From Escherichia phage EPIMRB01, in the sequence record PQ657784: a stretch of DNA of 64,000 nt; one strand, given 5' to 3'. Both the position numbers and the translations under genes were made by a program. The notes below the pieces were generated by a model that was given only the letters and a program-made list of their open reading frames with translations, was not told the DNA's origin and did not search any database. The first letter of the stretch is position 1. Every line of letters starts with the position of its first letter. Positions 2,816 through 54,452 of the stretch are shown in pieces.

Positions 2816-4016
2816 ATTTTGTAATAATGTCAAACTGTTCTTTAAAGCAGAAGCTTGAATCTTGATGCTGATACAAAAATTCATATGCTTTTTCTCGCTC
2901 ACGGTCATAAAGAGTTCGATCAGATGACAGTTCTTTAATACGTTCAAATGTTGATTCCATGTCATTTTCATCAAACCAAATGATACCGCTATCATGCGAG
3001 GTCAAAGGAGTATTATCAACACGGAATTTTAAATTTTCGCCAGTAGATTTCCAAAATACCGGAATTGTTCCACATGCACCAAGCTCGAGATGAGTATATT
3101 CTAAAGAACGTTGTAGATATTTTTTGTCCAACTTACTCAGCTGATAACCAAATCCGGATTTACTCATACGTTCAAGCATTTCGCTATTTACATAACGGTC
3201 AAGAATTTGCGTTGGCAAATTAGGAGCAATTTTAATTTGGTCTACTTGATGAAGACGATAATACTCGTATGGAATTCCTTTTTCTTTAATAGGAATGAAC
3301 GCTGGAGAACGTTCCAGACCTTCCATAATAGTACTTAGTCCTGCAGGTTTAAGATGTTTTTCATGAAAATCAAACATCTGATAAAAACCTTTCCATGTAG
3401 TCGTACGACCAATCCAACGGTTGATATTCATGTTAATTTCAGAAACATCTTTCCAGTAGGTTGACCGAACCTTCGCAATATCCATAGGAGGCTGAAAGTT
3501 ATATACTGTCGGTGCTTCTTCAATATCATCAAACAGAGAAACTGTTTCAGGATACCATTCTTTCATCAGAACTTTATTAAAATCACCATTATCAGAATGG
3601 CTAAAAATAACATCAGCTCGACGAACAGTTTCTTCTAATCCCAAATTTCGGCGCAAAGAAAGAGAAGAATGGTCATGTTGATAAACTACAACACGAACAG
3701 AAGGTTTAATGTTATCAATAATTTTTTTATAGTTATTAATAGTGTCTTCTTCAACCGAAGTAGCAGGAACTGAATTGATAATTAGAATATCACAATCATT
3801 TACCAGCTTAAGTGTTTTATCATATTCTTTTGCCAATAAAACCGGAATTGAAAATGATTTATAATCATGCGCGCAATTACGAGTAAATGATTTATCTTTA
3901 GCATAAACCAAAGTTACTTCATGACCATTTTTAATAAACCAATCACGTTGCTCGAGTGAGAATTTTGTTACACCACAACCTTCAAGACCTCGAGCCATAA
4001 AAATACATACTTTCAT
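2814..4016 (-). CDS. a-gt: DNA alpha-glucosyltransferase (glucosylates hydroxymethylcytosine)
   Basis: 400 aa; N-terminus MKVCIFMARGLEGCGVTKFSLEQRDWFIKNGHEVTLVYAKDKSF matches T4 alpha-gt as recalled; position after gene 47. Confidence 0.88.
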   Translation of the reverse strand: MKVCIFMARGLEGCGVTKFSLEQRDWFIKNGHEVTLVYAKDKSFTRNCAHDYKSFSIPVLLAKEYDKTLKLVNDCDILIINSVPATSVEEDTINNYKKIIDNIKPSVRVVVYQHDHSSLSLRRNLGLEETVRRADVIFSHSDNGDFNKVLMKEWYPETVSLFDDIEEAPTVYNFQPPMDIAKVRSTYWKDVSEINMNINRWIGRTTTWKGFYQMFDFHEKHLKPAGLSTIMEGLERSPAFIPIKEKGIPYEYYRLHQVDQIKIAPNLPTQILDRYVNSEMLERMSKSGFGYQLSKLDKKYLQRSLEYTHLELGACGTIPVFWKSTGENLKFRVDNTPLTSHDSGIIWFDENDMESTFERIKELSSDRTLYDREREKAYEFLYQHQDSSFCFKEQFDIITK

Positions 4017-8837: not shown

Positions 8838-10651
8838 TGATGCTTAACCCTATGCATGATTTCTTTATTTTTACCGAGATTAAATCCGCGTTCGTTCGGA
8901 TTTCCCAAATAACCACATGTTCTTCTTATTGTGTTCATCTTTTTAGGATCAGTTTCTCCACAAATAGAACAAACAAATCCGTTTTCAGTAGGAGTCATTT
9001 CATGGGTACTTCCACATGTAAAACATTTATCTACTGGCATATTAACACCAAAATAATCTAAATGTTGTGCAGCATAATCCCATACGGCCTCAAGACCCTT
9101 TAAGTTATTTTTCATATCAGGAAGTTCAACATAAGAAATGTGGCCGCCTGTCGCAATGAAATGATATGGTGCTTCGCGAGAAATCTTTTCAAACGGAGTA
9201 ATATTTTCTTCTACTGAAACATGGAAACTGTTAGTGTACCAACCTTTATCGGTAACATCCTTTACACTTCCATATTTTTCGGTATCAAGTTTACAGAAGC
9301 GATAACAAAGGTTTTCAGCAGGAGTAGAATACAAACTAAAAGCAAACCCAGTTCTTTCAGTCCACTGTTTAAGACGAGCATTCATTTTAGTTAAAATTTC
9401 CTGTCCAATATCACGACCGACAAGAATATTCAATTCGTGAATACCAATGTATCCTAGAGACACTGAACTTCTGCCATTTTTAAATAACTCAATTATATCG
9501 TCATCAGGTTTAAGACGAACCCCGAATGCACCTTCTTGGTAAAGAATAGGAGCAACAGTCGCTTTAACTCCTTTTAAGGAACTAATTCTACACATCAAAG
9601 CTTCAAAACATAAATCCATTCGCTCATTGAACAATTCAACAAATTTCTGTTCATTGAATTGTGTTCCAATATAAGAATCTAACGCGATACGAGGAAGATT
9701 CAGTGTTACAACACCGAGATTATTACGTCCATCAAGAATTTCATTGCCAGTCGAATCTTTCCATACGCTCAAGAAACTACGACAACCCATTGGAGAAACA
9801 GGAATAGATGAGCCGGTGATAGCTTTATTGTTCTTAGCCGAAATGATGTCAGGATACATTCTTTTGCTTGCGCACTCTAGAGCAAGCTGTTTAATATCAT
9901 AGTTCGGATCGTCTTTATAAAGATTAACACCTTCTTCAACGAACATAACAAGTTTAGGGAAAATAGGAGTTATCCCATCACGACCAAGACCTTTAATACG
10001 ATTTTTCAGAATTGCTTTCTGAATCATTCGTTCAGTCCAGTCAGTTCCCGTACCAAATGTAATTGTTACAAAAGGCGTTTGTCCGTTTGAACTAAAGAGA
10101 GTATTTACTTCATATTCATAAGCTTGGAATGCATCGTATACATCTTTTTCTGTTTTAGATTGAGCATAATTCAACGCATCAGCGATTTGCCATTTTTCTG
10201 CATCCTCAATATGTTTTGCATAGGTGCGTTTAACATAAGGAGAAAGTACTTTATCTACATTAGCAAAAGTCGTTCCGCCGTATTGATGGGAAGCAACCTG
10301 TGCAGTAATTTGTGCCATAATTGCAGTAGCAACTCCAATTGATTTAGGAGTTTCAATCTGTGCATTACCTAGCTTAAATCCGTTCTCAAGCATTCCTTTT
10401 AAATCTACTAAACAACAATTAGTAAATGGAAGAGCAGGGGAATAATCAATATCATGGAAATGAATAATTCCGCTTTCATGCGCTTTCATAATAAAAGACG
10501 GGACCATATTTTTGGCAATGTGTTTAGACACAATACCAGCCATAAGGTCCCGTTGAGTTGGAAAAACACGAGAATCTTTATTAGCATTCTCGTTTAAAAG
10601 GTCTTTATTAGTTTTATGAATCAATCCTTCAATTTCTTTTTCAATTGTCAT
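8834..10651 (-). CDS. nrdD: Anaerobic ribonucleoside-triphosphate reductase, uninterrupted reading frame
   Basis: 605 aa; C-terminal glycyl-radical motif RRTCGYLG and Cys cluster CFTCGS...CSICG. Confidence 0.92.
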   Translation of the reverse strand: MTIEKEIEGLIHKTNKDLLNENANKDSRVFPTQRDLMAGIVSKHIAKNMVPSFIMKAHESGIIHFHDIDYSPALPFTNCCLVDLKGMLENGFKLGNAQIETPKSIGVATAIMAQITAQVASHQYGGTTFANVDKVLSPYVKRTYAKHIEDAEKWQIADALNYAQSKTEKDVYDAFQAYEYEVNTLFSSNGQTPFVTITFGTGTDWTERMIQKAILKNRIKGLGRDGITPIFPKLVMFVEEGVNLYKDDPNYDIKQLALECASKRMYPDIISAKNNKAITGSSIPVSPMGCRSFLSVWKDSTGNEILDGRNNLGVVTLNLPRIALDSYIGTQFNEQKFVELFNERMDLCFEALMCRISSLKGVKATVAPILYQEGAFGVRLKPDDDIIELFKNGRSSVSLGYIGIHELNILVGRDIGQEILTKMNARLKQWTERTGFAFSLYSTPAENLCYRFCKLDTEKYGSVKDVTDKGWYTNSFHVSVEENITPFEKISREAPYHFIATGGHISYVELPDMKNNLKGLEAVWDYAAQHLDYFGVNMPVDKCFTCGSTHEMTPTENGFVCSICGETDPKKMNTIRRTCGYLGNPNERGFNLGKNKEIMHRVKHQ

Positions 10652-11121
10652 TTTAAACTCTTTCTAAGCTGCTTCTTAAATGAAGCTATTAACTGTGTTT
10701 TTGTGTCAGATTCATTATATTCAAATCCTCTTTGAAGCATCTCAGCCATCATTTCCTCTTTTCCTAAACGAGAAAATTCCTTTGATTTATCTCCAACAAA
10801 GTTAGGGTGAATATTATTTTGGGTGTAATCGGATTTTAAATAAGTAAGTAAATTTTCTAACCATTCAAGATAATCAACGCCTTGTCCTTTTAAGCCAGAA
10901 CGATTAAATTTATGTTTCATTTGACCTTCTGCAGCATTGCAGAGATTACAGAGCAATCCACGTACCTTTCCAGCTTTCGGTCCATTTAATTCATGGTCAT
11001 GGTCAAGATGATTAGCTTGAACATCAGGATTTAATTCTCGTTGGCAAATTAAGCATTTACCGTTTTGTGCATTATAAAATTTTTGTTTTTCTTCTTTGTA
11101 TAATTTGCCAGTCAATAACAT
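10648..11121 (-). CDS. 49: Endonuclease VII (Holliday-junction resolvase) gp49
   Basis: 157 aa; N-terminus and Zn-binding Cys/His pattern consistent with T4 endo VII as recalled. Confidence 0.88.
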   Translation of the reverse strand: MLLTGKLYKEEKQKFYNAQNGKCLICQRELNPDVQANHLDHDHELNGPKAGKVRGLLCNLCNAAEGQMKHKFNRSGLKGQGVDYLEWLENLLTYLKSDYTQNNIHPNFVGDKSKEFSRLGKEEMMAEMLQRGFEYNESDTKTQLIASFKKQLRKSLK

Positions 11122-12281: not shown

Positions 12282-12460
12282 TTAGAAATAGACTTTTCAC
12301 CATTAGAATAATAAACTTCGAGTTTAGCACGATTATTTTTAATTTGAATAACCTTGGCTGTCATCAAAGTTCCATATCCATAGTAAACTGCAACTTCATC
12401 ACCTACATATACCGCGCTTCCGCGATAATCATGGATATAATCAGTTCCTTCGAGCATCAT
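12245..12460 (-). CDS. Hypothetical protein, 71 aa
   Basis: ORF with 4-nt overlap to nrdC. Confidence 0.45.
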   Translation of the reverse strand: MMLEGTDYIHDYRGSAVYVGDEVAVYYGYGTLMTAKVIQIKNNRAKLEVYYSNGEKSISKWKYGDCMVKLG

Positions 12461-12720
12461 TTAAAGTATTCCCGCAATTGGTCAAATCCACCAATATGAC
12501 TTCCATCAGGAGCAAATATCTGAGGCATTGTCAAGCCGATTTGAGTATCACGACCTAGTTTAGTCAGAAGCTCAGCGATTTTCTCATCATCAAAAACACC
12601 TTTTTCCGGCATAATGTTGATAAATTCAAACGGCTGTTTCTTCACAGTCAAAAGACGTTTTGCATTATCGCAATACACACATTTATGGATGTTGCTATCA
12701 TAACCATATACTTTAAACAT
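12457..12720 (-). CDS. nrdC: Thioredoxin/glutaredoxin NrdC
   Basis: 87 aa; CVYC active site; sequence MFKVYGYDSNIHKCVYCDNAKRLL matches T4 thioredoxin as recalled. Confidence 0.88.
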   Translation of the reverse strand: MFKVYGYDSNIHKCVYCDNAKRLLTVKKQPFEFINIMPEKGVFDDEKIAELLTKLGRDTQIGLTMPQIFAPDGSHIGGFDQLREYFK

Positions 12721-12721
12721 A

Positions 12722-12964
12722 TTATTCCTTAATTCCTAGTACTTGTTTAAAAGTCTCGTCGTAATCAAGACTTTGACCCGTTTGTTCTTTATGTTTGTAT
12801 ATAATATCACTTACTTCTGATAGCATATTTTTATATGAACGAGTTAAAGCTGATTTAAGCACGCTGTATCTATCAGGAAATTTACCATGTTCATTATAAT
12901 AAGCTATTGCTAATTCACGGACTGCCTTTTCGGCAGTCTCCATATATTCTTTACGCTTTGTCAT
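12722..12964 (-). CDS. Hypothetical protein (about 80 aa from internal Met)
   Basis: ORF 12722..13123 trimmed; the N-terminal extension overlaps the upstream gene. Confidence 0.4.
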
Positions 12965-13247
12965 TTTCTTCTCGGTCAAATCGGTGTTTACAATGGCGAC
13001 ATTTATAACGAAGATTACTAGTATGCCAATGGACCAATTGCACCTGTTCAGTTCCACATTCAGGGCAATTAGGAACGTTTTTAGAAGCACGTTCGCGACG
13101 TTCAACCATAGCCATAATGGCATCCCAAGCCGGAGGTTTAAAATCTAAATCGTCAGTAACTAGCAGTCCTTTATCAAACCCAGCGCATGGAGTCCATTCA
13201 GGAAAATCTGAAGCTTCAGCAATATCTTCTAATAAACGCTTTTTCAT
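12951..13247 (-). CDS. Small zinc-ribbon protein, 98 aa
   Basis: Two CxxC pairs (CPECG ... CRHCKH). Confidence 0.5.
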
Positions 13248-14170
13248 TTTAGTACCTCAATAGCATTACGTAAACCATTTGCTTTGGCGGTTAAAGTCTT
13301 AATAACTTTAGTATGCTCTTCAATCTGTTTTTCAACTTCAATCAAACGGGCACTGAGATATTCGCGTTCTTCTTTCATAGTATCATTCCCATGATTGTGC
13401 TTTGGTGTAGGTTTAAATTTACTAGGGTCCTTTAACTTAATAACAACTTTAGTTTCAAACAGTGAAAGACCATAATTCGTATTATCATCAAAGGATTCAA
13501 CTACGTCCATTTTAGACAATAACGTACGAAGATTATAAGTCAAAGAACGAATCGTTTTATTATGTTTATTAGCTTCACATGGTTTCATATATGGAAGATT
13601 TTTATATATTTCATGTGGAGCACAAACAATAATTGACAATTCAAATGGTCCATTCTGTGATGATGGAATGAATTTAGCCGTAACCCAATCTTTTACATTT
13701 ACATTAATAGTACGGTCATCGCCATGACAAAACAGTCTACGAGAATGCTTAAAAAGCATATTCACATTATTATTGAATTCATGTGAAAACTCACTAGCAA
13801 ATTTTTCTTTACTATTTTTAGAAAACCATTCTTCTAAATAAGTTCTTTTCACGTCATTAATAATATTAAATGTAACAACACTAGCATTTGATACATTAGT
13901 CTCAATGTAGTTTGGATACATAAATTTTTTAACATTATTAACAGCTATCACAGAAGATAGTAATCGGGAACGTTTGAACCACTCTAGCAAAGAACCAAGA
14001 GAATGTGAATACGCATTTTGTGTATCTTTACAAATATGGTTTTCCCATCCAATATAGTCTAAAAAATCACGAAGAATATTATTGATTACTGCTCTATGTC
14101 CTATCTGATAATTACGATGTTTAGTAATAAGACTGTCAAAATAATCAATATAATGTTTACGAGTTTTCAT
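13244..14170 (-). CDS. Hypothetical protein, 308 aa; paralogue A of a 4-gene family with C-terminal coiled coil
   Basis: About 260-aa globular part plus C-terminal heptad-repeat helix ([31 protein letters not shown]); same architecture as the three upstream genes. Confidence 0.6.
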   Translation of the reverse strand: MKTRKHYIDYFDSLITKHRNYQIGHRAVINNILRDFLDYIGWENHICKDTQNAYSHSLGSLLEWFKRSRLLSSVIAVNNVKKFMYPNYIETNVSNASVVTFNIINDVKRTYLEEWFSKNSKEKFASEFSHEFNNNVNMLFKHSRRLFCHGDDRTINVNVKDWVTAKFIPSSQNGPFELSIIVCAPHEIYKNLPYMKPCEANKHNKTIRSLTYNLRTLLSKMDVVESFDDNTNYGLSLFETKVVIKLKDPSKFKPTPKHNHGNDTMKEEREYLSARLIEVEKQIEEHTKVIKTLTAKANGLRNAIEVLK

Positions 14171-14222
14171 GTTCTTCTCACTTGGTTAATGATTTATACT
14201 CCGAGCCATCCTTGGCTTTAAA

Positions 14223-15224
14223 TTACTTAATTAGCTGTAAAGCTTGTTCAAGACGATCCAGACGATTAACAGATTCTTCCCAAATCCTTTTAGCCTTCTC
14301 ATATTCTTTCTGCGCTTTATTAGAAATTTCTAGAACTTCTTTATAAGCTTTTTCTAGTGCAATAACTTCTGGACGAATTTCTATCGGTTCAGGCGAATCG
14401 TCAAGACATTCCATTAGTTCTTCAAGGGTAGTTTCTTCTTTAGGAGTATTCACAATTTCATCACATTTTTGTTGGTAAATTTCTTTATCAGTCGGTGAGT
14501 ACGTACGTTTCACTTCACGGAGGCTAATTATAATTTTATATCCTTCCCAACCACACATATTTTTGAAAGGATATGTATGAATACTTTTTACGGTTTCCAT
14601 ACAGCCCAAAGCCGCCTCTAATTGATAAGTTATAGTGCTAGCAATTGAGAAAAATTTATTAATATTCTTTTGGTTAGCGTTTGGTGTAAAAAATCCATAA
14701 TTCACAAAAATAGCTACTTTATTTTTATCAAGCTCATATTCTTTTACGATAATCATATCAGAAGCCAAAGGATGAATTTGACGATAATTGCCATAACATA
14801 ATTTAGAAGCTGATTTTAGAATTTGTCCTTTGAAAAGTCTGAAATTACTAATCCAACGACGAGTAAAAATATTCTCAGGGTCTTCTTTATTATTAAGATG
14901 ATAAGAATTAACATCACCGAACCAATTATATCCTACTACATCTTTAGTTCGTTTAATTTCTTTCCCAAATTTACCAAGAATATCTCTGTTAACTAAGTAT
15001 GAAAGAAGACGAGACCCTTTAAAGGTTTTCTTAATGTCATCTTTATCTGTACGACTAGAAATTTCACGAACTTCGTGAATAAATCTGCTGGAAGAAACAA
15101 TGCTTACATCAATATTATTGAGCCATTGATTGATAATAGAAAGAACACTATTCTGACTAGACTTAGGTTTAACTTTATCATCAATAACACTGTTGAATGA
15201 TTTGATATATTCGTTACGAGTCAT
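14223..15224 (-). CDS. Hypothetical protein, about 333 aa (start moved to the Met downstream of promoter); paralogue B
   Basis: Segment RRWISNFRLFKGQILKSASKL resembles WRFIALFRRQLKQILSTASRL in paralogue C; C-terminal coiled coil; GAGGAG RBS. Confidence 0.6.
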   Translation of the reverse strand: MTRNEYIKSFNSVIDDKVKPKSSQNSVLSIINQWLNNIDVSIVSSSRFIHEVREISSRTDKDDIKKTFKGSRLLSYLVNRDILGKFGKEIKRTKDVVGYNWFGDVNSYHLNNKEDPENIFTRRWISNFRLFKGQILKSASKLCYGNYRQIHPLASDMIIVKEYELDKNKVAIFVNYGFFTPNANQKNINKFFSIASTITYQLEAALGCMETVKSIHTYPFKNMCGWEGYKIIISLREVKRTYSPTDKEIYQQKCDEIVNTPKEETTLEELMECLDDSPEPIEIRPEVIALEKAYKEVLEISNKAQKEYEKAKRIWEESVNRLDRLEQALQLIK

Positions 15225-15252
15225 ATTAATCTCCTCAGTAGAAAGTAAGAAC

Positions 15253-15290
15253 ATTATACCACATCCTTGTGGTAAAGTAAACTAGTTCAG
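15253..15290 (-). promoter_or_regulatory. T4-type early promoter (GTTTAC-N18-TGGTATAAT)
   Basis: Reverse complement reads GTTTACTTTACCACAAGGATGTGGTATAATG; overlaps the stop of paralogue C. Confidence 0.55.
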
Positions 15291-16310
15291 TGCATTTAGT
15301 GCATTGTTCAGTTTAGAACGTTGCTTCGTGAGATTTTTGACTTTTTCTTGAGCTTTTTCTAGCATCTTTTCAGCTTCTAGCACTTCATTAGTTGCTTTAA
15401 CGAGTTCATCATCTACTGCCTTGATAGACTTCTCAATCGCATCTGCATGCCATTTTTCAACAGGTTTAAGACTCGGATTTTCAATAGGAAGAAAATTCAC
15501 TTTATTGAATTTCCATGCATCCTTATTACCTGAACTATACATCCAAAATTTAGGATCGTTTGATGAATAATTGGATAAATTTAAATTTAAGTTATCTTGC
15601 ACTTCCTGCTTTTTCTCTTGTGTGACTTCGTCCTTTCTCAAAAAATCGTATTTAAATGAAACGATCATATCAAGTTCATATGTTGTTGTGTCTAATTTAA
15701 ATCGTTCAAAACGAGGTAAAATCTTAGACTGAACAGCGGCAACAACATCCATATACTTAAATGCTTCTGTCAACTGCGATTTAAGGCATTCGCAAATTGA
15801 AAGAGAATTTTTTGTATTAGGTTTAAAGCTAATTCGTGCAGTTCTATTATTTTCTTTTAATGGTCTTACTTCCATCTGAAGAGTATAACCATCAAATTTC
15901 AGATTCTTTAAGTTAATATCAGAACCTTTTAATCGACTCGCAGTTGATAAAATTTGCTTTAATTGTCTACGGAACAGAGCAATAAATCTCCATTCAATAC
16001 GATAATGATTTGGATTGAAGAATCCAGATGATAAATCGACCTTACTTTGACCAACGCCTTGAACAAATAGAGGATTTTTATAATCAATAGTTTTACAGAA
16101 ATCGGTGAGCTGCTCACGGGCCGTCATTTGTGTAATATACCCTGCTTTACTAAAATTACGCACCCATTCACTGCTATTCGTATACTTAAAGTGATGAATA
16201 ACACGATTAACTTTATCAGGGTCTAAATTATTTTCACACAAAAATGTCATAACATCACGAGTATAGCTGGCATTACGAACCATATCTTCAATTTGAGAAC
16301 GAGTTTTCAT
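15282..16310 (-). CDS. Hypothetical protein, 342 aa; paralogue C
   Basis: Shared internal motif with B; C-terminal coiled coil (EKAQEKVKNLTKQRSKLNNALNALN). Confidence 0.6.
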   Translation of the reverse strand: MKTRSQIEDMVRNASYTRDVMTFLCENNLDPDKVNRVIHHFKYTNSSEWVRNFSKAGYITQMTAREQLTDFCKTIDYKNPLFVQGVGQSKVDLSSGFFNPNHYRIEWRFIALFRRQLKQILSTASRLKGSDINLKNLKFDGYTLQMEVRPLKENNRTARISFKPNTKNSLSICECLKSQLTEAFKYMDVVAAVQSKILPRFERFKLDTTTYELDMIVSFKYDFLRKDEVTQEKKQEVQDNLNLNLSNYSSNDPKFWMYSSGNKDAWKFNKVNFLPIENPSLKPVEKWHADAIEKSIKAVDDELVKATNEVLEAEKMLEKAQEKVKNLTKQRSKLNNALNALN

Positions 16311-16318
16311 GGTATTCC

Positions 16319-17221
16319 TTAAGATTTAAGTAAATCAACGATTTTAATTAACTTTTCACGCTCAGATTTAGCTTTACTACTCAATCCAGATAGTCTGAAA
16401 ATTTCATCGTCATATTGTTGAATAGAAATATTCAGCTCTTCAATTTGCTTATTAAAATAATCAATTTGTTCAGAATGTTTTTCGTTACTACGACCTGGTG
16501 CAGGTTTTGTAGGCAATTTAGTTGAACTGGATTCATCCGGGCGATAAATTAAAATACAACTTGAACCAATCGGACATTTAGCACCAGATGAATATTCTAA
16601 TGTTCCGGCTTCTTTTAAAACTTCAAAAGCTAAACAGAGATGATGCCCCATATTAACATAATCTGTAGAGCGAGCTCTGACGTAATAATCATCGCCGCGA
16701 ATACTAAATTTAAAGCATTTAAGGTCTTCTGTATTATTGGTCTTAAAAATCATTTGTTTATCTAGACCTTTAGCTAATCGAGCGCCTAATGCTAATAATC
16801 GTCGTTGATTTTCCCACAAATCTGCGATCATTTGATCGAATGATAATTTTGGCATTAGTCGACCATAAAGGTCATATCCTTTATTATAATTACGAAGGAT
16901 TTCACTCGCGTTAATACGAGACAATGCTCCAATTTTATTAAGGGCTTTCATAATGCGATTAGATAAACCCATTCCAGACCAGTTTGTTCGCTGCAAATGT
17001 TTTTCTAATCCAAATCCAATATCAACTTTAAACTTATCTAAAATTTCTGCATGAACATCTCTGTCAATAACATTCAAATCCAAAGTTGGGTTAAATCTAT
17101 GAAAAAATTTATCTGGCTCTCCACGACGAAGTACAGTCCATTCATTCAATTTTTTATTAACTAAAGATTTAATTACTGCATTGACATTATTAATTGCTAC
17201 TGACATATTTTCCTCACTCAA
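16319..17221 (-). CDS. Hypothetical protein, 300 aa; paralogue D
   Basis: C-terminal coiled coil; 4-nt overlap with the upstream membrane-protein gene. Confidence 0.55.
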   Translation of the reverse strand: MSEENMSVAINNVNAVIKSLVNKKLNEWTVLRRGEPDKFFHRFNPTLDLNVIDRDVHAEILDKFKVDIGFGLEKHLQRTNWSGMGLSNRIMKALNKIGALSRINASEILRNYNKGYDLYGRLMPKLSFDQMIADLWENQRRLLALGARLAKGLDKQMIFKTNNTEDLKCFKFSIRGDDYYVRARSTDYVNMGHHLCLAFEVLKEAGTLEYSSGAKCPIGSSCILIYRPDESSSTKLPTKPAPGRSNEKHSEQIDYFNKQIEELNISIQQYDDEIFRLSGLSSKAKSEREKLIKIVDLLKS

Positions 17222-17622
17222 TTTTCAATTTTACTAAATACGCAGAATATGATGGAAAAGACTATATAAGCACCGCACACAGATTGAACTAATACCATTC
17301 CAAAGAACCAGACAATATTATCAAACAGTGTCTGTTTTACGTCGAAAGGACGTAAACTTACAGTAATATTATCACCTTTTTCTATTGAAGAATACATCTC
17401 TGGAGAAATATATTCACTAAATCTATAACCGTCTTTGAGTTCATATACGGCAATAAACGATAAACTAGACCCCTTTCCTTGAGTTCCTGTAAGGGTATTA
17501 ACTATAGTAACATCATAATCTTTATAATGCATATAATCATTAATAGCATAATAACCATATGCAATTACTATACATAAACAACATATCAATAAATTCAATC
17601 TTTTAATTATCAACTGTTTCAT
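17218..17622 (-). CDS. Membrane protein, 134 aa (N- and C-terminal hydrophobic helices)
   Basis: LNLLICCLCIVIAYGYYAI and FFGMVLVQSVCGAYIVFSIIFCVF hydrophobic segments. Confidence 0.55.
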   Translation of the reverse strand: MKQLIIKRLNLLICCLCIVIAYGYYAINDYMHYKDYDVTIVNTLTGTQGKGSSLSFIAVYELKDGYRFSEYISPEMYSSIEKGDNITVSLRPFDVKQTLFDNIVWFFGMVLVQSVCGAYIVFSIIFCVFSKIEN

Positions 17623-17651
17623 AATAATCTCAATTAAAAGGGCTTAGAACC

Positions 17652-17680
17652 ATTATACCATCCTTGGTATAAAGCGGTTA
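17652..17680 (-). promoter_or_regulatory. Candidate middle-type promoter (MotA-box-like CGCTTTA, 12 bp, TATAAT)
   Basis: Reverse complement reads CGCTTTATACCAAGGATGGTATAATGG. Confidence 0.4.
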
Positions 17681-18205
17681 TGCGAGTACCGTCTTTAACC
17701 GTTCTTCAAATTTCCGAAGAGTGTTCTGGCGTTCAGCTCTTTGCTTTTTGTAAGTTTCAATACGCTCTGAAATGAGAGTGTATCGTTCATTTACTGATTC
17801 TTTCATAAAATCAGGAATTTCACGAGAAGCTTTAATTTCATCAAATTTATCAATAACAGCTTGCTCTTCAGCAATTAAGTTATCATACATCAAAATATCT
17901 TTCTTGATGAACTCAATATCTTCTTGAGTTACACGAGATAATTTAGATGCTTTATCCTTTTTGTACTGTTCGTTAGTATCACGAGACCAGTGTAATGTAC
18001 GATTTTTATTCGTATTCTTATAAATTTCTACAATACCAATCTCATCAATAATAACGATCCAATTCCAACGGGATTTGTAAATTTGTCCTCCATCAACCGC
18101 GATTTCACCACCGATTGAGACATCATTAAAGAACTTGCTTTGAGCTTCAGATTTAAATTTACCATCATTGTAGTTTACTAAGTTGAAAATATCTTTAGCA
18201 TTCAT
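17678..18205 (-). CDS. Hypothetical protein, about 175 aa (start at the Met after promoter and GGAGG RBS)
   Basis: Track ORF 17678..18265 starts upstream of its own promoter; internal Met MNAKDIFN has the RBS. Confidence 0.5.
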   Translation of the reverse strand: MNAKDIFNLVNYNDGKFKSEAQSKFFNDVSIGGEIAVDGGQIYKSRWNWIVIIDEIGIVEIYKNTNKNRTLHWSRDTNEQYKKDKASKLSRVTQEDIEFIKKDILMYDNLIAEEQAVIDKFDEIKASREIPDFMKESVNERYTLISERIETYKKQRAERQNTLRKFEERLKTVLA

Positions 18206-52647: not shown

Positions 52648-54452
52648 TGAAACAAAATATTAATATCGGTAATGTTGTTGATGATGGTACCGGTGACTAC
52701 CTGCGTAAAGGTGGTATAAAAATAAATGAAAACTTTGATGAACTTTATTATGAACTTGGTGATGGAGATGTTCCATATTCAGCCGGTGCCTGGAAAACTT
52801 ATGATGCTTCATCTGGACAAACACTAACGGCAGAATGGGGAAAATCATATGCCATTAATACTTCGTCTGGAAGAGTAACTCTACAACTTCCTAAAGGAAC
52901 TGTTAATGATTACAACAAGGTAATTAGAGCTAGAGACGTATTCGCTACATGGAACATCAATCCAGTTACTTTAGTAGCTGCTTCCGGAGATACAATTAAA
53001 GGGTCGTCATCGTCAGTTGAAATTAATATTCAATTTAGTGATTTAGAGCTAGTTTATTGCGCTCCAGGACGTTGGGAATATGTCAAAAACAAACAAATTG
53101 ACAAAATTGTTAGTTCAGATATTAGTAATGTAGCTCGCAAAGAATTTTTAGTTGAAGTTCAAGGACAAACTGACTTTTTAGATGTTTTCAATGGAACTAG
53201 TTATAATGTCAATAACATCAGAGTAAAACATCGTGGTAACGAATTGTATTACGGCGATGTATTTAGCGAAAACAGTGACTTTGGCTCTCCGGGCGAAAAT
53301 GAAGGCGAATTAGTTCCTCTTGATGGATTTAATATTCGATTAAGACAGCCTTGTAATATTGGTGACACCGTTCAAATTGAAACATTTATGGATGGTGTAT
53401 CACAATGGAGAAGTTCATATACAAGACGCCAAATAAAAGTACTAGATTCAAAACTAACATCAAAGACTTCTTTAGAAGGAAGCATTTATGTTACTGATTT
53501 ATCGGCGATGAAATCAATTCCATTCTCTGCATTTGGATTAATTCCTGGTGAACCCATTAATCCTAATTCTCTTGAGGTTCGTTTTAATGGAATTTTACAG
53601 CAACAAGCTGGAACAGCTGGATATCCTCTGTTTTTGTGTGAAGGCGCTAATTCAGATACGCAAGAAGGTTGTATATCTCTTGGCGGCGAATGGAAAGAAT
53701 CAAACACCGATTATTCTATAGAATATGAAGACGGAAAACCTATCAGTCTTTTATTTGATAGAAAATTTGAATCAGGCGATATAATCGTTATAACGTGGTT
53801 CAATAATGATTTAGGAACTCTTTTAGAAAAAGATGACATTATTGAATTAACGGATGACCGTTATGTTAGCAAAGGATCATCTACCGAAGTTACTGGTGAT
53901 GTAGCCTTAACAGATTTTGATAAAATCGGTTGGCCAAATGTTGAAAAAGTTGATTCTTATACTAGAACGTATAATTCAATATCATCTATTTTCGATAGCA
54001 TTTATCCTGTAGGTTCAATTTATGAAAATGCTATAAATCCAAATAATCCGGTGACTTATATGGGATTTGGTTCATGGAAATTATTTGGTAAAGGACAGGT
54101 TTTAGTAGGATGGAATGATGATGTTACGGATCCAAACTTTGCTTTAAACAATAATGATTTAGATTCTAGCGGAAATCCTTCACATACTGCCGGTGGAACA
54201 GTTGGAACAACAACAGTGACACTTGAGAATGCAAATCTTCCTGCAACTAAAACCGACGAAAGAGTTTTAATTGAAGACGAAAACGGATCAGTTATTATTG
54301 GAGGTTGCCAATATGACCCAGATGAAACTGGTCCTATATATACAAAATATCGTGAAGACTACGCAACAACAAACTCTTCACATACTCCTCCTGCTAATAT
54401 TAGTAATATTCAACCGTCTATTACTGTATACCGTTGGATAAGGATTGCATAA
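52647..54452 (+). CDS. 10: Baseplate wedge protein gp10
   Basis: 601 aa; TAATG junctions with genes 9 and 11. Confidence 0.88.

Follow-up and report, generated by a model that had tools for sequence, protein, structure and literature searches.

The closest described system is NrdC.5 of bacteriophage T4, a DUF7235 protein: on cells with the Dsr1 of ECOR17, a deletion mutant regains infectivity when nrdC.5 alone is expressed from a plasmid (PMC9391042). The sensor of Dsr1 is shared with Avs7, and its trigger is the major capsid proteins (PMC13581612). In the stretch of DNA analysed here, 64,000 nucleotides (nt) of Escherichia phage EPIMRB01 (sequence record PQ657784; hereafter the window), nrdC.5 is one of four consecutive genes, nrdC.3 to nrdC.6, whose products appear to follow the same plan of body, linker and helix as the T4 protein. 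The nrdC.5 of the window is the orthologue of the T4 gene (96% identity between the proteins), nrdC.3 and nrdC.4 are its relatives at the level of sequence, and nrdC.6 is a probable relative at the level of the predicted fold. T4 NrdC.5 has a known target, whereas nrdC.3, nrdC.4 and nrdC.6 fall outside DUF7235, in separate Pfam families and PHROGs.

Three other sets of proteins invite comparison. DSAD1, the inhibitor of the SIR2 NADase DSR2 from SPbeta-group phages (PMC11087589, PMC10981675), may be regarded as a functional analogue, likened to NrdC.5 by role and not by sequence or fold. Both are phage proteins that counter a defence-associated sirtuin with a virion-protein-recognising sensor domain; DSAD1, however, binds DSR2 directly, whereas NrdC.5 is known from genetic rescue. 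To our knowledge, no tandem array of paralogues surrounds DSAD1. The T4 dmd-tifA-adfA anti-toxin-antitoxin ('anti-TA') island and the internal proteins IPI, IPII and IPIII are likewise small non-essential gene clusters in which each gene acts against a different host system, and like the present array they vary among T-even phages, where recombination at microhomologies remodels them (PMC9391042). The array differs from them in consisting of paralogues of about 300-340 amino acids (aa) with a predicted two-domain body and coiled-coil tail, and in a position that is conserved across Straboviridae subfamilies. The third set is made up of uncharacterised nrdC-adjacent proteins of Straboviridae (Acj61p120/p121, Pectobacterium PM2 A0A0A0PZG4, Enterobacter IME523 A0A7G3KGN9, Klebsiella Marfa gp080 and JIPh_Kp122_0066), which have the same predicted fold (probability 1.00), size, C-terminal heptad helix and genomic position, and are in tandem in Acj61, at a sequence identity of 10-18% that mostly lies under profile detection. 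For the alpha/beta core, tail terminator and tail completion proteins (lambda gpU, SPP1 gp17-like fold) also count among the closest known systems.

The explanation that we favour, with a probability of roughly 0.55, is that the array consists of diverged tandem paralogues acting as inhibitors of host immune proteins, beside nrdC across Straboviridae. The anti-Dsr1 activity of nrdC.5 and anti-defence islands as a kind of locus were already known. Our search of the literature found no paper on these Pfam families or on paralogy of nrdC.3 to nrdC.6; as far as we found, it is new that nrdC.3, nrdC.4 and, probably, nrdC.6 join nrdC.5 in one recombining family across Straboviridae, as is the promoter cassette common to the copies.

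The window belongs to a Tequatrovirus (T4-like) genome. Positions 13000-17700 are 100% identical to Escherichia phage AUBRB02 and match 595 phage records, 461 of them at a coverage of at least 80%. The longest open reading frames (ORFs) of this region are consecutive on the minus strand, at 13244-14170 (308 aa), 14223-15254 (343), 15282-16310 (342) and 16319-17221 (300), and correspond to nrdC.3, nrdC.4, nrdC.5 and nrdC.6 of the RB32 and T4 records. For brevity the copies are also called A, B, C and D in this order. With two starts corrected, the four genes are:

13244..14170, minus strand: nrdC.3 (A), 308 aa; basic body, short linker and C-terminal heptad helix at about residues 267-308 (nt 13247-13372)
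14223..15224, minus strand: nrdC.4 (B), 333 aa from M11; C-terminal helix at residues 285-333 (nt 14226-14372)
15282..16310, minus strand: nrdC.5 (C), 342 aa; C-terminal helix at about residues 285-342 (nt 15285-15458) with perfect a/d heptads
16319..17206, minus strand: nrdC.6 (D), 295 aa from M6; C-terminal helices at residues 242-295 (nt 16322-16483)

A preliminary description of this DNA had reported four consecutive genes of 300-343 aa, and these ORFs are present as described; the N-termini, MKTR or MTR, are likewise real. The start of nrdC.4 nevertheless lies at M11 (15224) and not at the longest-ORF start (15254), because the earlier ATG sits in the -10 hexamer TATAATG, a GAGGAG Shine-Dalgarno sequence (15236-15231) precedes M11, and most databases list a protein of 333 aa. 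The usual annotated start of nrdC.6 is M6 at 17206. The possibility that the four are pieces of one gene broken up by sequencing errors was rejected: each has its own start and stop, and a tblastn search of 50,697 phage records returned separate orthologue groups for nrdC.3 (653 records), nrdC.4 (553), nrdC.5 (581) and nrdC.6 (741).

The relatedness of nrdC.3 and nrdC.4 is apparent from pairwise comparison (blastp E 3.9e-5 over 271 aa), from family hidden Markov models (HMMER, 2e-16 to 1e-14) and from profile alignment (hhalign 97.9%, E 5.8e-13), and both proteins belong to PHROG phrog_1435. nrdC.4 aligns in turn with nrdC.5 (hhalign 87.5%, E 3.6e-6, 238 columns) and still does so with all C-terminal helices cut off (77.6%, E 1.9e-5), a similarity that reaches beyond the coiled coil and passes through exactly the internal segment that had been flagged as shared by these two proteins. 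Body scores of 36.6 for nrdC.4-nrdC.5 and 28.9 for nrdC.3-nrdC.5 exceed the null, which peaks at 23.3 when the columns of the nrdC.5 profile are shuffled 120 times. Klebsiella phage Marfa gp080, whose N-terminus reads MTRNEV, bridges the two families, matching both nrdC.4 (87.5%, 235 columns) and nrdC.5 (95.3%), and an iterated nrdC.4 profile (jackhmmer, natural chimeras taken out) reports several true nrdC.5 proteins at E values of 1e-4 to 6e-4. By sequence and profile, these comparisons establish that nrdC.3, nrdC.4 and nrdC.5 share ancestry. A first jackhmmer merge of nrdC.3 with nrdC.5 was discarded as an artefact of P0224, a natural in-frame C::A fusion present in the database, and the search was rerun without chimeras; left in a database, such proteins can falsely merge families in iterative searches.

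In terms of domain libraries, nrdC.5 matches Pfam DUF7235 (PF23882) over its full length (425.7 bits, E 1.6e-127; gathering cut-off 30 bits). nrdC.3 reaches 15.6 bits through its tail only, and nrdC.4 and nrdC.6 have no match to this family; precomputed Pfam labels assign them to families of their own, PF26897 (nrdC.4) and PF26899 (nrdC.6). All four proteins contain the motif [ILMV][LFI]xx[AGSTH][SAR][KR]L-x(1-3)-G a single time, and the window has no further occurrence of it; we treat it as illustrative and not as evidence, because it was derived from these sequences and is absent from many orthologues.

The family seems confined to one group of phages. Large protein searches returned homologues only from T4-like phages or from phage-sized contigs filed under bacterial names, and a deep search of 1.84 billion representative proteins with an NrdC.5 profile found 13 proteins only and no link beyond T4-like phages. 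Related arrays adjoin nrdC across Straboviridae in one to four copies per genome, and the proposed survey of copy number revealed a variable composition: D-C-B-A in Tequatrovirus, D-C-B in Dhakavirus-like loci, D-C-A in Mosigvirus APCEc01, two tandem copies beside nrdC in Acinetobacter phage Acj61 (Twarogvirinae), one recognisable copy with a heptad tail in Jiaodavirus, Karamvirus, Tegunavirus, Marfavirus and Hadassahvirus, and no paralogue at the nrdC site of RB43. The position of nrdC.6 in the array is fixed in every genus examined. Fusions and remnants occur as well. In Salmonella phage Manna (extracted locus L017, 3215-4252), D and B are fused in frame at a DEI microhomology common to both, and the product retains the architecture; the C::A fusion P0224 and P0234, a 48-residue C::B remnant, are likewise joined in frame at microhomologies; in Pinarejo, nrdC.6 is reduced to a tail remnant (L021, 4501-4641), while in ACG-C40 only nrdC.6 is intact (L022, 4302-4713).

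The array is also diverging fast. Between genera, the flanking genes are mostly 77-88% identical (67-70% for nrdC.8), compared with 41-51% for nrdC.6, 38-51% for nrdC.4 and 23-28% for nrdC.5. Within Tequatrovirus, the ratio of non-synonymous to synonymous substitution rates (dN/dS) is 0.16-0.28 for the four genes versus 0.01-0.04 for gp49, nrdC and nrdC.8, and nrdC.3 falls into two allele classes that are about 60% identical. Rapid divergence and copy-number flux are therefore features of this locus.

Three individual records deserve mention. The nrdC.6 of the T4 reference NC_000866.4 (extracted locus 10067-10930) has a 1-nt deletion, GAGCTG-ATATTT versus GAGCTGAATATTT, which shifts the frame at the cost of most of the C-terminal helix. 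In the T4 annotation table used for HIDEN-SEQ the gene is intact (891 nt), and the deletion is due either to an old error in sequencing or to polymorphism among strains. The nrdC.6-family protein of Shigella phage Sf25 (P0064) has grown to 378 aa by an internal tandem duplication. Finally, P0230, encoded at 120-641 of the 803-bp ENA contig k141_89665, joins a 120-residue N-terminal part to the exact last 53 residues of NrdC.5. Its N-terminal part has no match in the 50,697 phage records, and the protein could not be interpreted; it may reflect an exchange of the body in front of a retained tail, or a chimeric assembly.

Structure comparison covered AlphaFold2 models of nrdC.4 and nrdC.6, searched with Foldseek against BFVD. 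Both models (predicted local distance difference test scores of 84.8 and 76.3, respectively) show a folded body (about 225-245 aa) that a low-confidence linker connects to a long helix at the C-terminus; this helix is single in nrdC.4 (residues 285-332) and divided in nrdC.6 (242-271 and 277-294). The order and spacing of the core elements are the same in the two models, namely two helices followed by a short third one, then a beta-hairpin, a further helix and a second beta-hairpin. Both retrieve the same uncharacterised Straboviridae proteins with a probability of 1.00: PM2 A0A0A0PZG4 (E 2.3e-7 for nrdC.4 and 1.8e-7 for nrdC.6), IME523 A0A7G3KGN9 (9.2e-8 and 8.8e-7), a protein of fHyAci03 (3.8e-6 and 3.6e-5) and Acj61 E5E4A2 (4e-5 and 1.6e-4). 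The nrdC.4 model moreover matches the nrdC.6-family protein of Sf25 directly (E 2.2e-3, probability 1.00).

The tails were assessed in all four proteins. Hydrophobic residues make up 0.80-0.94 of the heptad a/d positions, a fraction matched by 0-7 of 2000 shuffles, so the C-terminal heptad helix that had been described as common to the copies is borne out by the sequences as well as by the two models; that these coiled coils oligomerise is a prediction from the heptads and the model. The tails are near neutral, and the linkers span 19-59 residues, that of nrdC.4 being acidic. In comparisons across genera, conservation in each orthologue group is highest in the tail, with 65% versus 38% for the core in nrdC.4, 63% in nrdC.6 (core 49%, N-terminal domain 26%), and 34% versus 22% for the core in nrdC.5, which points to a constant function of the tail and a variable function of the body.

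A further tie between the copies lies in the DNA upstream of them, where a cassette with a common core precedes several of the genes:

15253..15282, minus strand: early-type sigma-70 promoter of nrdC.4; GTTTAC (15282-15277), an 18-nt spacer and TGG-TATAAT (TATAAT at 15258-15253)
14193..14222, minus strand: decayed cassette before nrdC.3, a putative promoter; TTTAAAG, CCAAGGATGG (14215-14206), CTCGGAG and TATAAA (14198-14193)
17652..17676, minus strand: MotA-type middle promoter PnrdC.7 with the CCAAGGATGG core (17658-17667); CGCTTTA box (17676-17670), 12 nt and TATAAT (17657-17652)

The first of these had been placed at 15253-15290 in the preliminary description; it is real, a strong site at 15253-15282 before nrdC.4, with a scan score of 10/12 plus TG. 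Among 16 related loci scanned it is retained before nrdC.4 in 15, and in every genus sampled, despite the 38-51% identity of the proteins, and its spacer holds, within 15259-15271, CACAAGGATGTGG, a variant of the core CCAAGGATGG. The exact 10-mer CCAAGGATGG occurs twice in the window, before nrdC.3 and before nrdC.7/nrdC.6. The latter site coincides with the published MotA-dependent PnrdC.7, whose start site in T4 is at 53325 (PMC2988021), and serves nrdC.7 and, downstream, nrdC.6. In Mosigvirus the cassette precedes all three paralogues, and in genera without nrdC.7 the cassette or promoter stands directly before nrdC.6. The repeated cassette thus lends DNA-level support to duplicated promoter-plus-gene units, nrdC.6 included.

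Written as CCAAGGA(T/C)GG, the core, which recurs in related loci (at 3896, 4952 and 5948 of L020 and in L008-L016), is found in an early-type form (GTTTAC, core, then NGGAG TATAAT) and in a MotA-type form (GCTTTA, 2 nt, core, TATAAT), which is that of the published PnrdC.7; one and the same core therefore serves two promoter classes. The gene nrdC.7 itself (17218-17622, minus strand) encodes a predicted membrane protein, lies between PnrdC.7 and nrdC.6 and was found only in Tequatrovirus among the genera sampled. Since the promoter directly precedes nrdC.6 elsewhere, nrdC.7 looks like an insertion into the leader of the array.

The genomic context agrees with a role against host defences. On one side of the array, nrdC.1 (12722-12964, minus strand) is a Septu inhibitor, and on the other, nrdC.8 (17678-18205, minus strand) is by the Bas37 gene table the orthologue of bas37_0203, which inhibits Druantia type III (bioRxiv 10.1101/2025.11.20.689424). 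As these reported counter-defence genes flank the array, the region from nrdC.8 to nrdC is an anti-defence island. A heptad helix is also present at the end of nrdC.8 (9 of 2000 shuffles). Since pin, whose product inhibits Lon, is close by, the island seems to extend over the entire stretch between nrdC.8 and pin. Growth on E. coli K-12 does not require nrdC.3 to nrdC.6 (bioRxiv 10.1101/2025.11.20.689424). The idea of an arms-race locus, raised when the array was first noticed, is thus supported for inhibitors, in view of the anti-Dsr1 activity of nrdC.5, the counter-defence flanks, the fast divergence and the variation in copy number; decoy and receptor-binding roles, proposed at the same time, found no specific support. 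Because one member neutralises Dsr1 and the four appear to be related and built on one plan, the most fitting description of the cluster is a small immune-evasion toolbox subject to reshuffling, and not a new kind of system.

Several results weigh against inhibition of host immune proteins by a family of four. A phenotype has been demonstrated for nrdC.5 only, and the published work is genetic rescue and not direct binding (PMC9391042); direct binding, and any anti-defence role of nrdC.3, nrdC.4 and nrdC.6, would be extrapolations from that case. HIDEN-SEQ did not flag these three genes as conditionally essential in the tested hosts, and one comparison gives log2 fold changes of 0.09 (nrdC.3), -0.31 (nrdC.4) and 0.47 (nrdC.6) (bioRxiv 10.1101/2025.11.20.689424). 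The dN/dS ratios, although above those of the flanks, remain below 1 for all four genes. All four bodies have a basic character (pI of 9.2-9.6 and net charges from +8 to +14), which would suit nucleic-acid binding too, and the supposed oligomerisation is read from heptads and a monomer model. Lastly, no sequence relationship of nrdC.6 to nrdC.3, nrdC.4 or nrdC.5 was found with blastp, HMMER, jackhmmer or hhalign (shallow, deep and with bodies only): hhalign probabilities are 0.5-1.5%, and the body score against nrdC.5, 18.7, lies within the shuffle null. The place of nrdC.6 in the family is suggested by predicted structures, with template modelling (TM) scores to the common matches of only 0.39-0.51 and large root-mean-square deviations.

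The basic bodies bear on a first alternative, in which the four proteins are host-takeover or nucleic-acid-binding factors, with DNA, RNA or the transcription machinery as possible targets, and NrdC.5 rescues infection from Dsr1 indirectly. We consider this rather unlikely. The genes are fully dispensable on K-12 and are lost or fused in natural isolates, and they diverge far faster than their neighbours, a pattern typical of host-specific accessory functions. Nor was any known DNA- or RNA-binding family matched: apart from DUF7235 in nrdC.5, Pfam and NCBIfam scans of the four proteins gave domains of unknown function or coiled-coil noise and no enzyme or nucleic-acid-binding family, and neither family libraries nor models revealed a catalytic family or motif common to the four.

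A second alternative limits the true paralogues to nrdC.3, nrdC.4 and nrdC.5 and attributes the size, secondary-structure order and coiled-coil tail of nrdC.6 to chance. The profile results and modest TM scores given above are what it would lead one to expect, as is the behaviour of a jackhmmer search seeded with nrdC.6, which does not leave the nrdC.6 family; Yersinia fHe-Yen9-01 gp94 gives no more than a marginal link to nrdC.6 (E 1.3e-3 and 7.4e-4). Chance, however, would have to account for two models with the same core order and spacing that match the same Straboviridae proteins at a probability of 1.00 and E values of 1e-4 to 1e-7, for the direct match of the nrdC.4 model to a member of the nrdC.6 family, for the fixed syntenic position of nrdC.6 in every genus examined, for the CCAAGGATGG core that its promoter has in common with the other copies, and for a D::B chimera that retains the architecture. 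We therefore regard the chance explanation as unlikely. The earlier claim of four paralogues accordingly stands by sequence and profile for nrdC.3, nrdC.4 and nrdC.5, whereas for nrdC.6 common ancestry is suggested at the level of the predicted fold, and synteny, common architecture and the repeated promoter cassette add support to it.

It might also be argued that the four proteins are subunits of a single hetero-oligomeric machine joined by their C-terminal helices, for the genes are adjacent and co-transcribed and all four tails, the best conserved parts of the proteins, end in a similar L-x-x-A-L-x-x-L-K type motif. Yet the tail profiles of different copies are weakly similar (at best E 3.3e-4, for nrdC.3-nrdC.5; nothing for nrdC.4-nrdC.6). 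This arrangement is disfavoured, and in our view improbable, because viable natural phages hold one, two or three of the four genes and because nrdC.5 alone, from a plasmid, rescues the deletion mutant. Slightly more improbable still is that the alpha/beta core mimics a conserved virion protein of the tail-terminator or tail-completion fold noted above, the proteins being early decoys that saturate host sensors of structural proteins. A role in redox or nucleotide metabolism, in line with the product names in many GenBank records ('thioredoxin, phage-associated') and the position next to nrdC and nrdD, can be practically discounted, as none of the four proteins has a thioredoxin or glutaredoxin domain or matches another enzyme family (Pfam, NCBIfam) and the predicted fold is unrelated. 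The 'thioredoxin' label that many records attach to nrdC.1 to nrdC.11 was propagated from gene names based on map position and is refuted for nrdC.3 to nrdC.6 by their domain content; the true NrdC glutaredoxin is the product of a separate 87-aa gene at 12457-12720.

If the array does encode inhibitors of host immunity, the following scheme can be proposed. It would arise by duplication of a promoter-plus-gene unit and be kept in varying copy number next to nrdC. Each product would comprise a basic N-terminal helical domain and an alpha/beta core, joined through a disordered linker to an amphipathic heptad helix at the C-terminus. The proteins, which are produced ahead of late gene expression and which the phage can do without in laboratory hosts, would inhibit host immune proteins stoichiometrically: the variable body would recognise a particular defence protein, and the more conserved tail helix would oligomerise the inhibitor or anchor it to a constant partner. 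By analogy with the action of DSAD1 on DSR2, NrdC.5 may occupy or lock the sensor of the SIR2 NADase Dsr1 ahead of the late capsid protein, and NrdC.3, NrdC.4 and NrdC.6 are predicted to be directed against further defence proteins or variants. More tentatively, the locus may be a modular anti-immune platform in which a constant coiled-coil tail carries a diversifying body that blocks sensor domains of pattern-recognition defence proteins (of the Dsr1/Avs7 type for NrdC.5, different ones for the other copies); microhomology recombination would then create new in-frame combinations of body and tail, such as D::B, C::A and C::B, and act as a combinatorial generator of specificity beside nrdC in Tevenvirinae and Twarogvirinae.

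Genes of another type that may bear on NAD+-depleting defences were found in two genomes. Acj61 has genes for a nicotinamide phosphoribosyltransferase (NAMPT) and a ribose-phosphate pyrophosphokinase, a pair of the NAD+ reconstitution type, about 30 kb from its nrdC array (L019, 1229-3938), and RB43, which has no paralogue at the nrdC site, carries a NAMPT-like gene about 1.1 kb from nrdC (L028, 4427-5857). Such NAMPT-type genes may represent an alternative route against these defences.

Even in T4, the best-studied phage, only one of these four large pre-late genes has an assigned function. A family that includes NrdC.5 makes nrdC.3, nrdC.4 and nrdC.6 candidate counter-defence proteins, and turns dozens of homologues in Klebsiella, Acinetobacter, Yersinia and Enterobacter phages into candidates for panels of defence systems. 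The plan of body, linker and tail, together with the natural chimeras, lends itself to domain swaps that would map specificity, and the family alignment separates constant from variable regions, a distinction relevant to the mechanism of Dsr1 inhibition. Finally, the content of the island differs between therapeutic T-even phages, and knowledge of it could help predict their host range.

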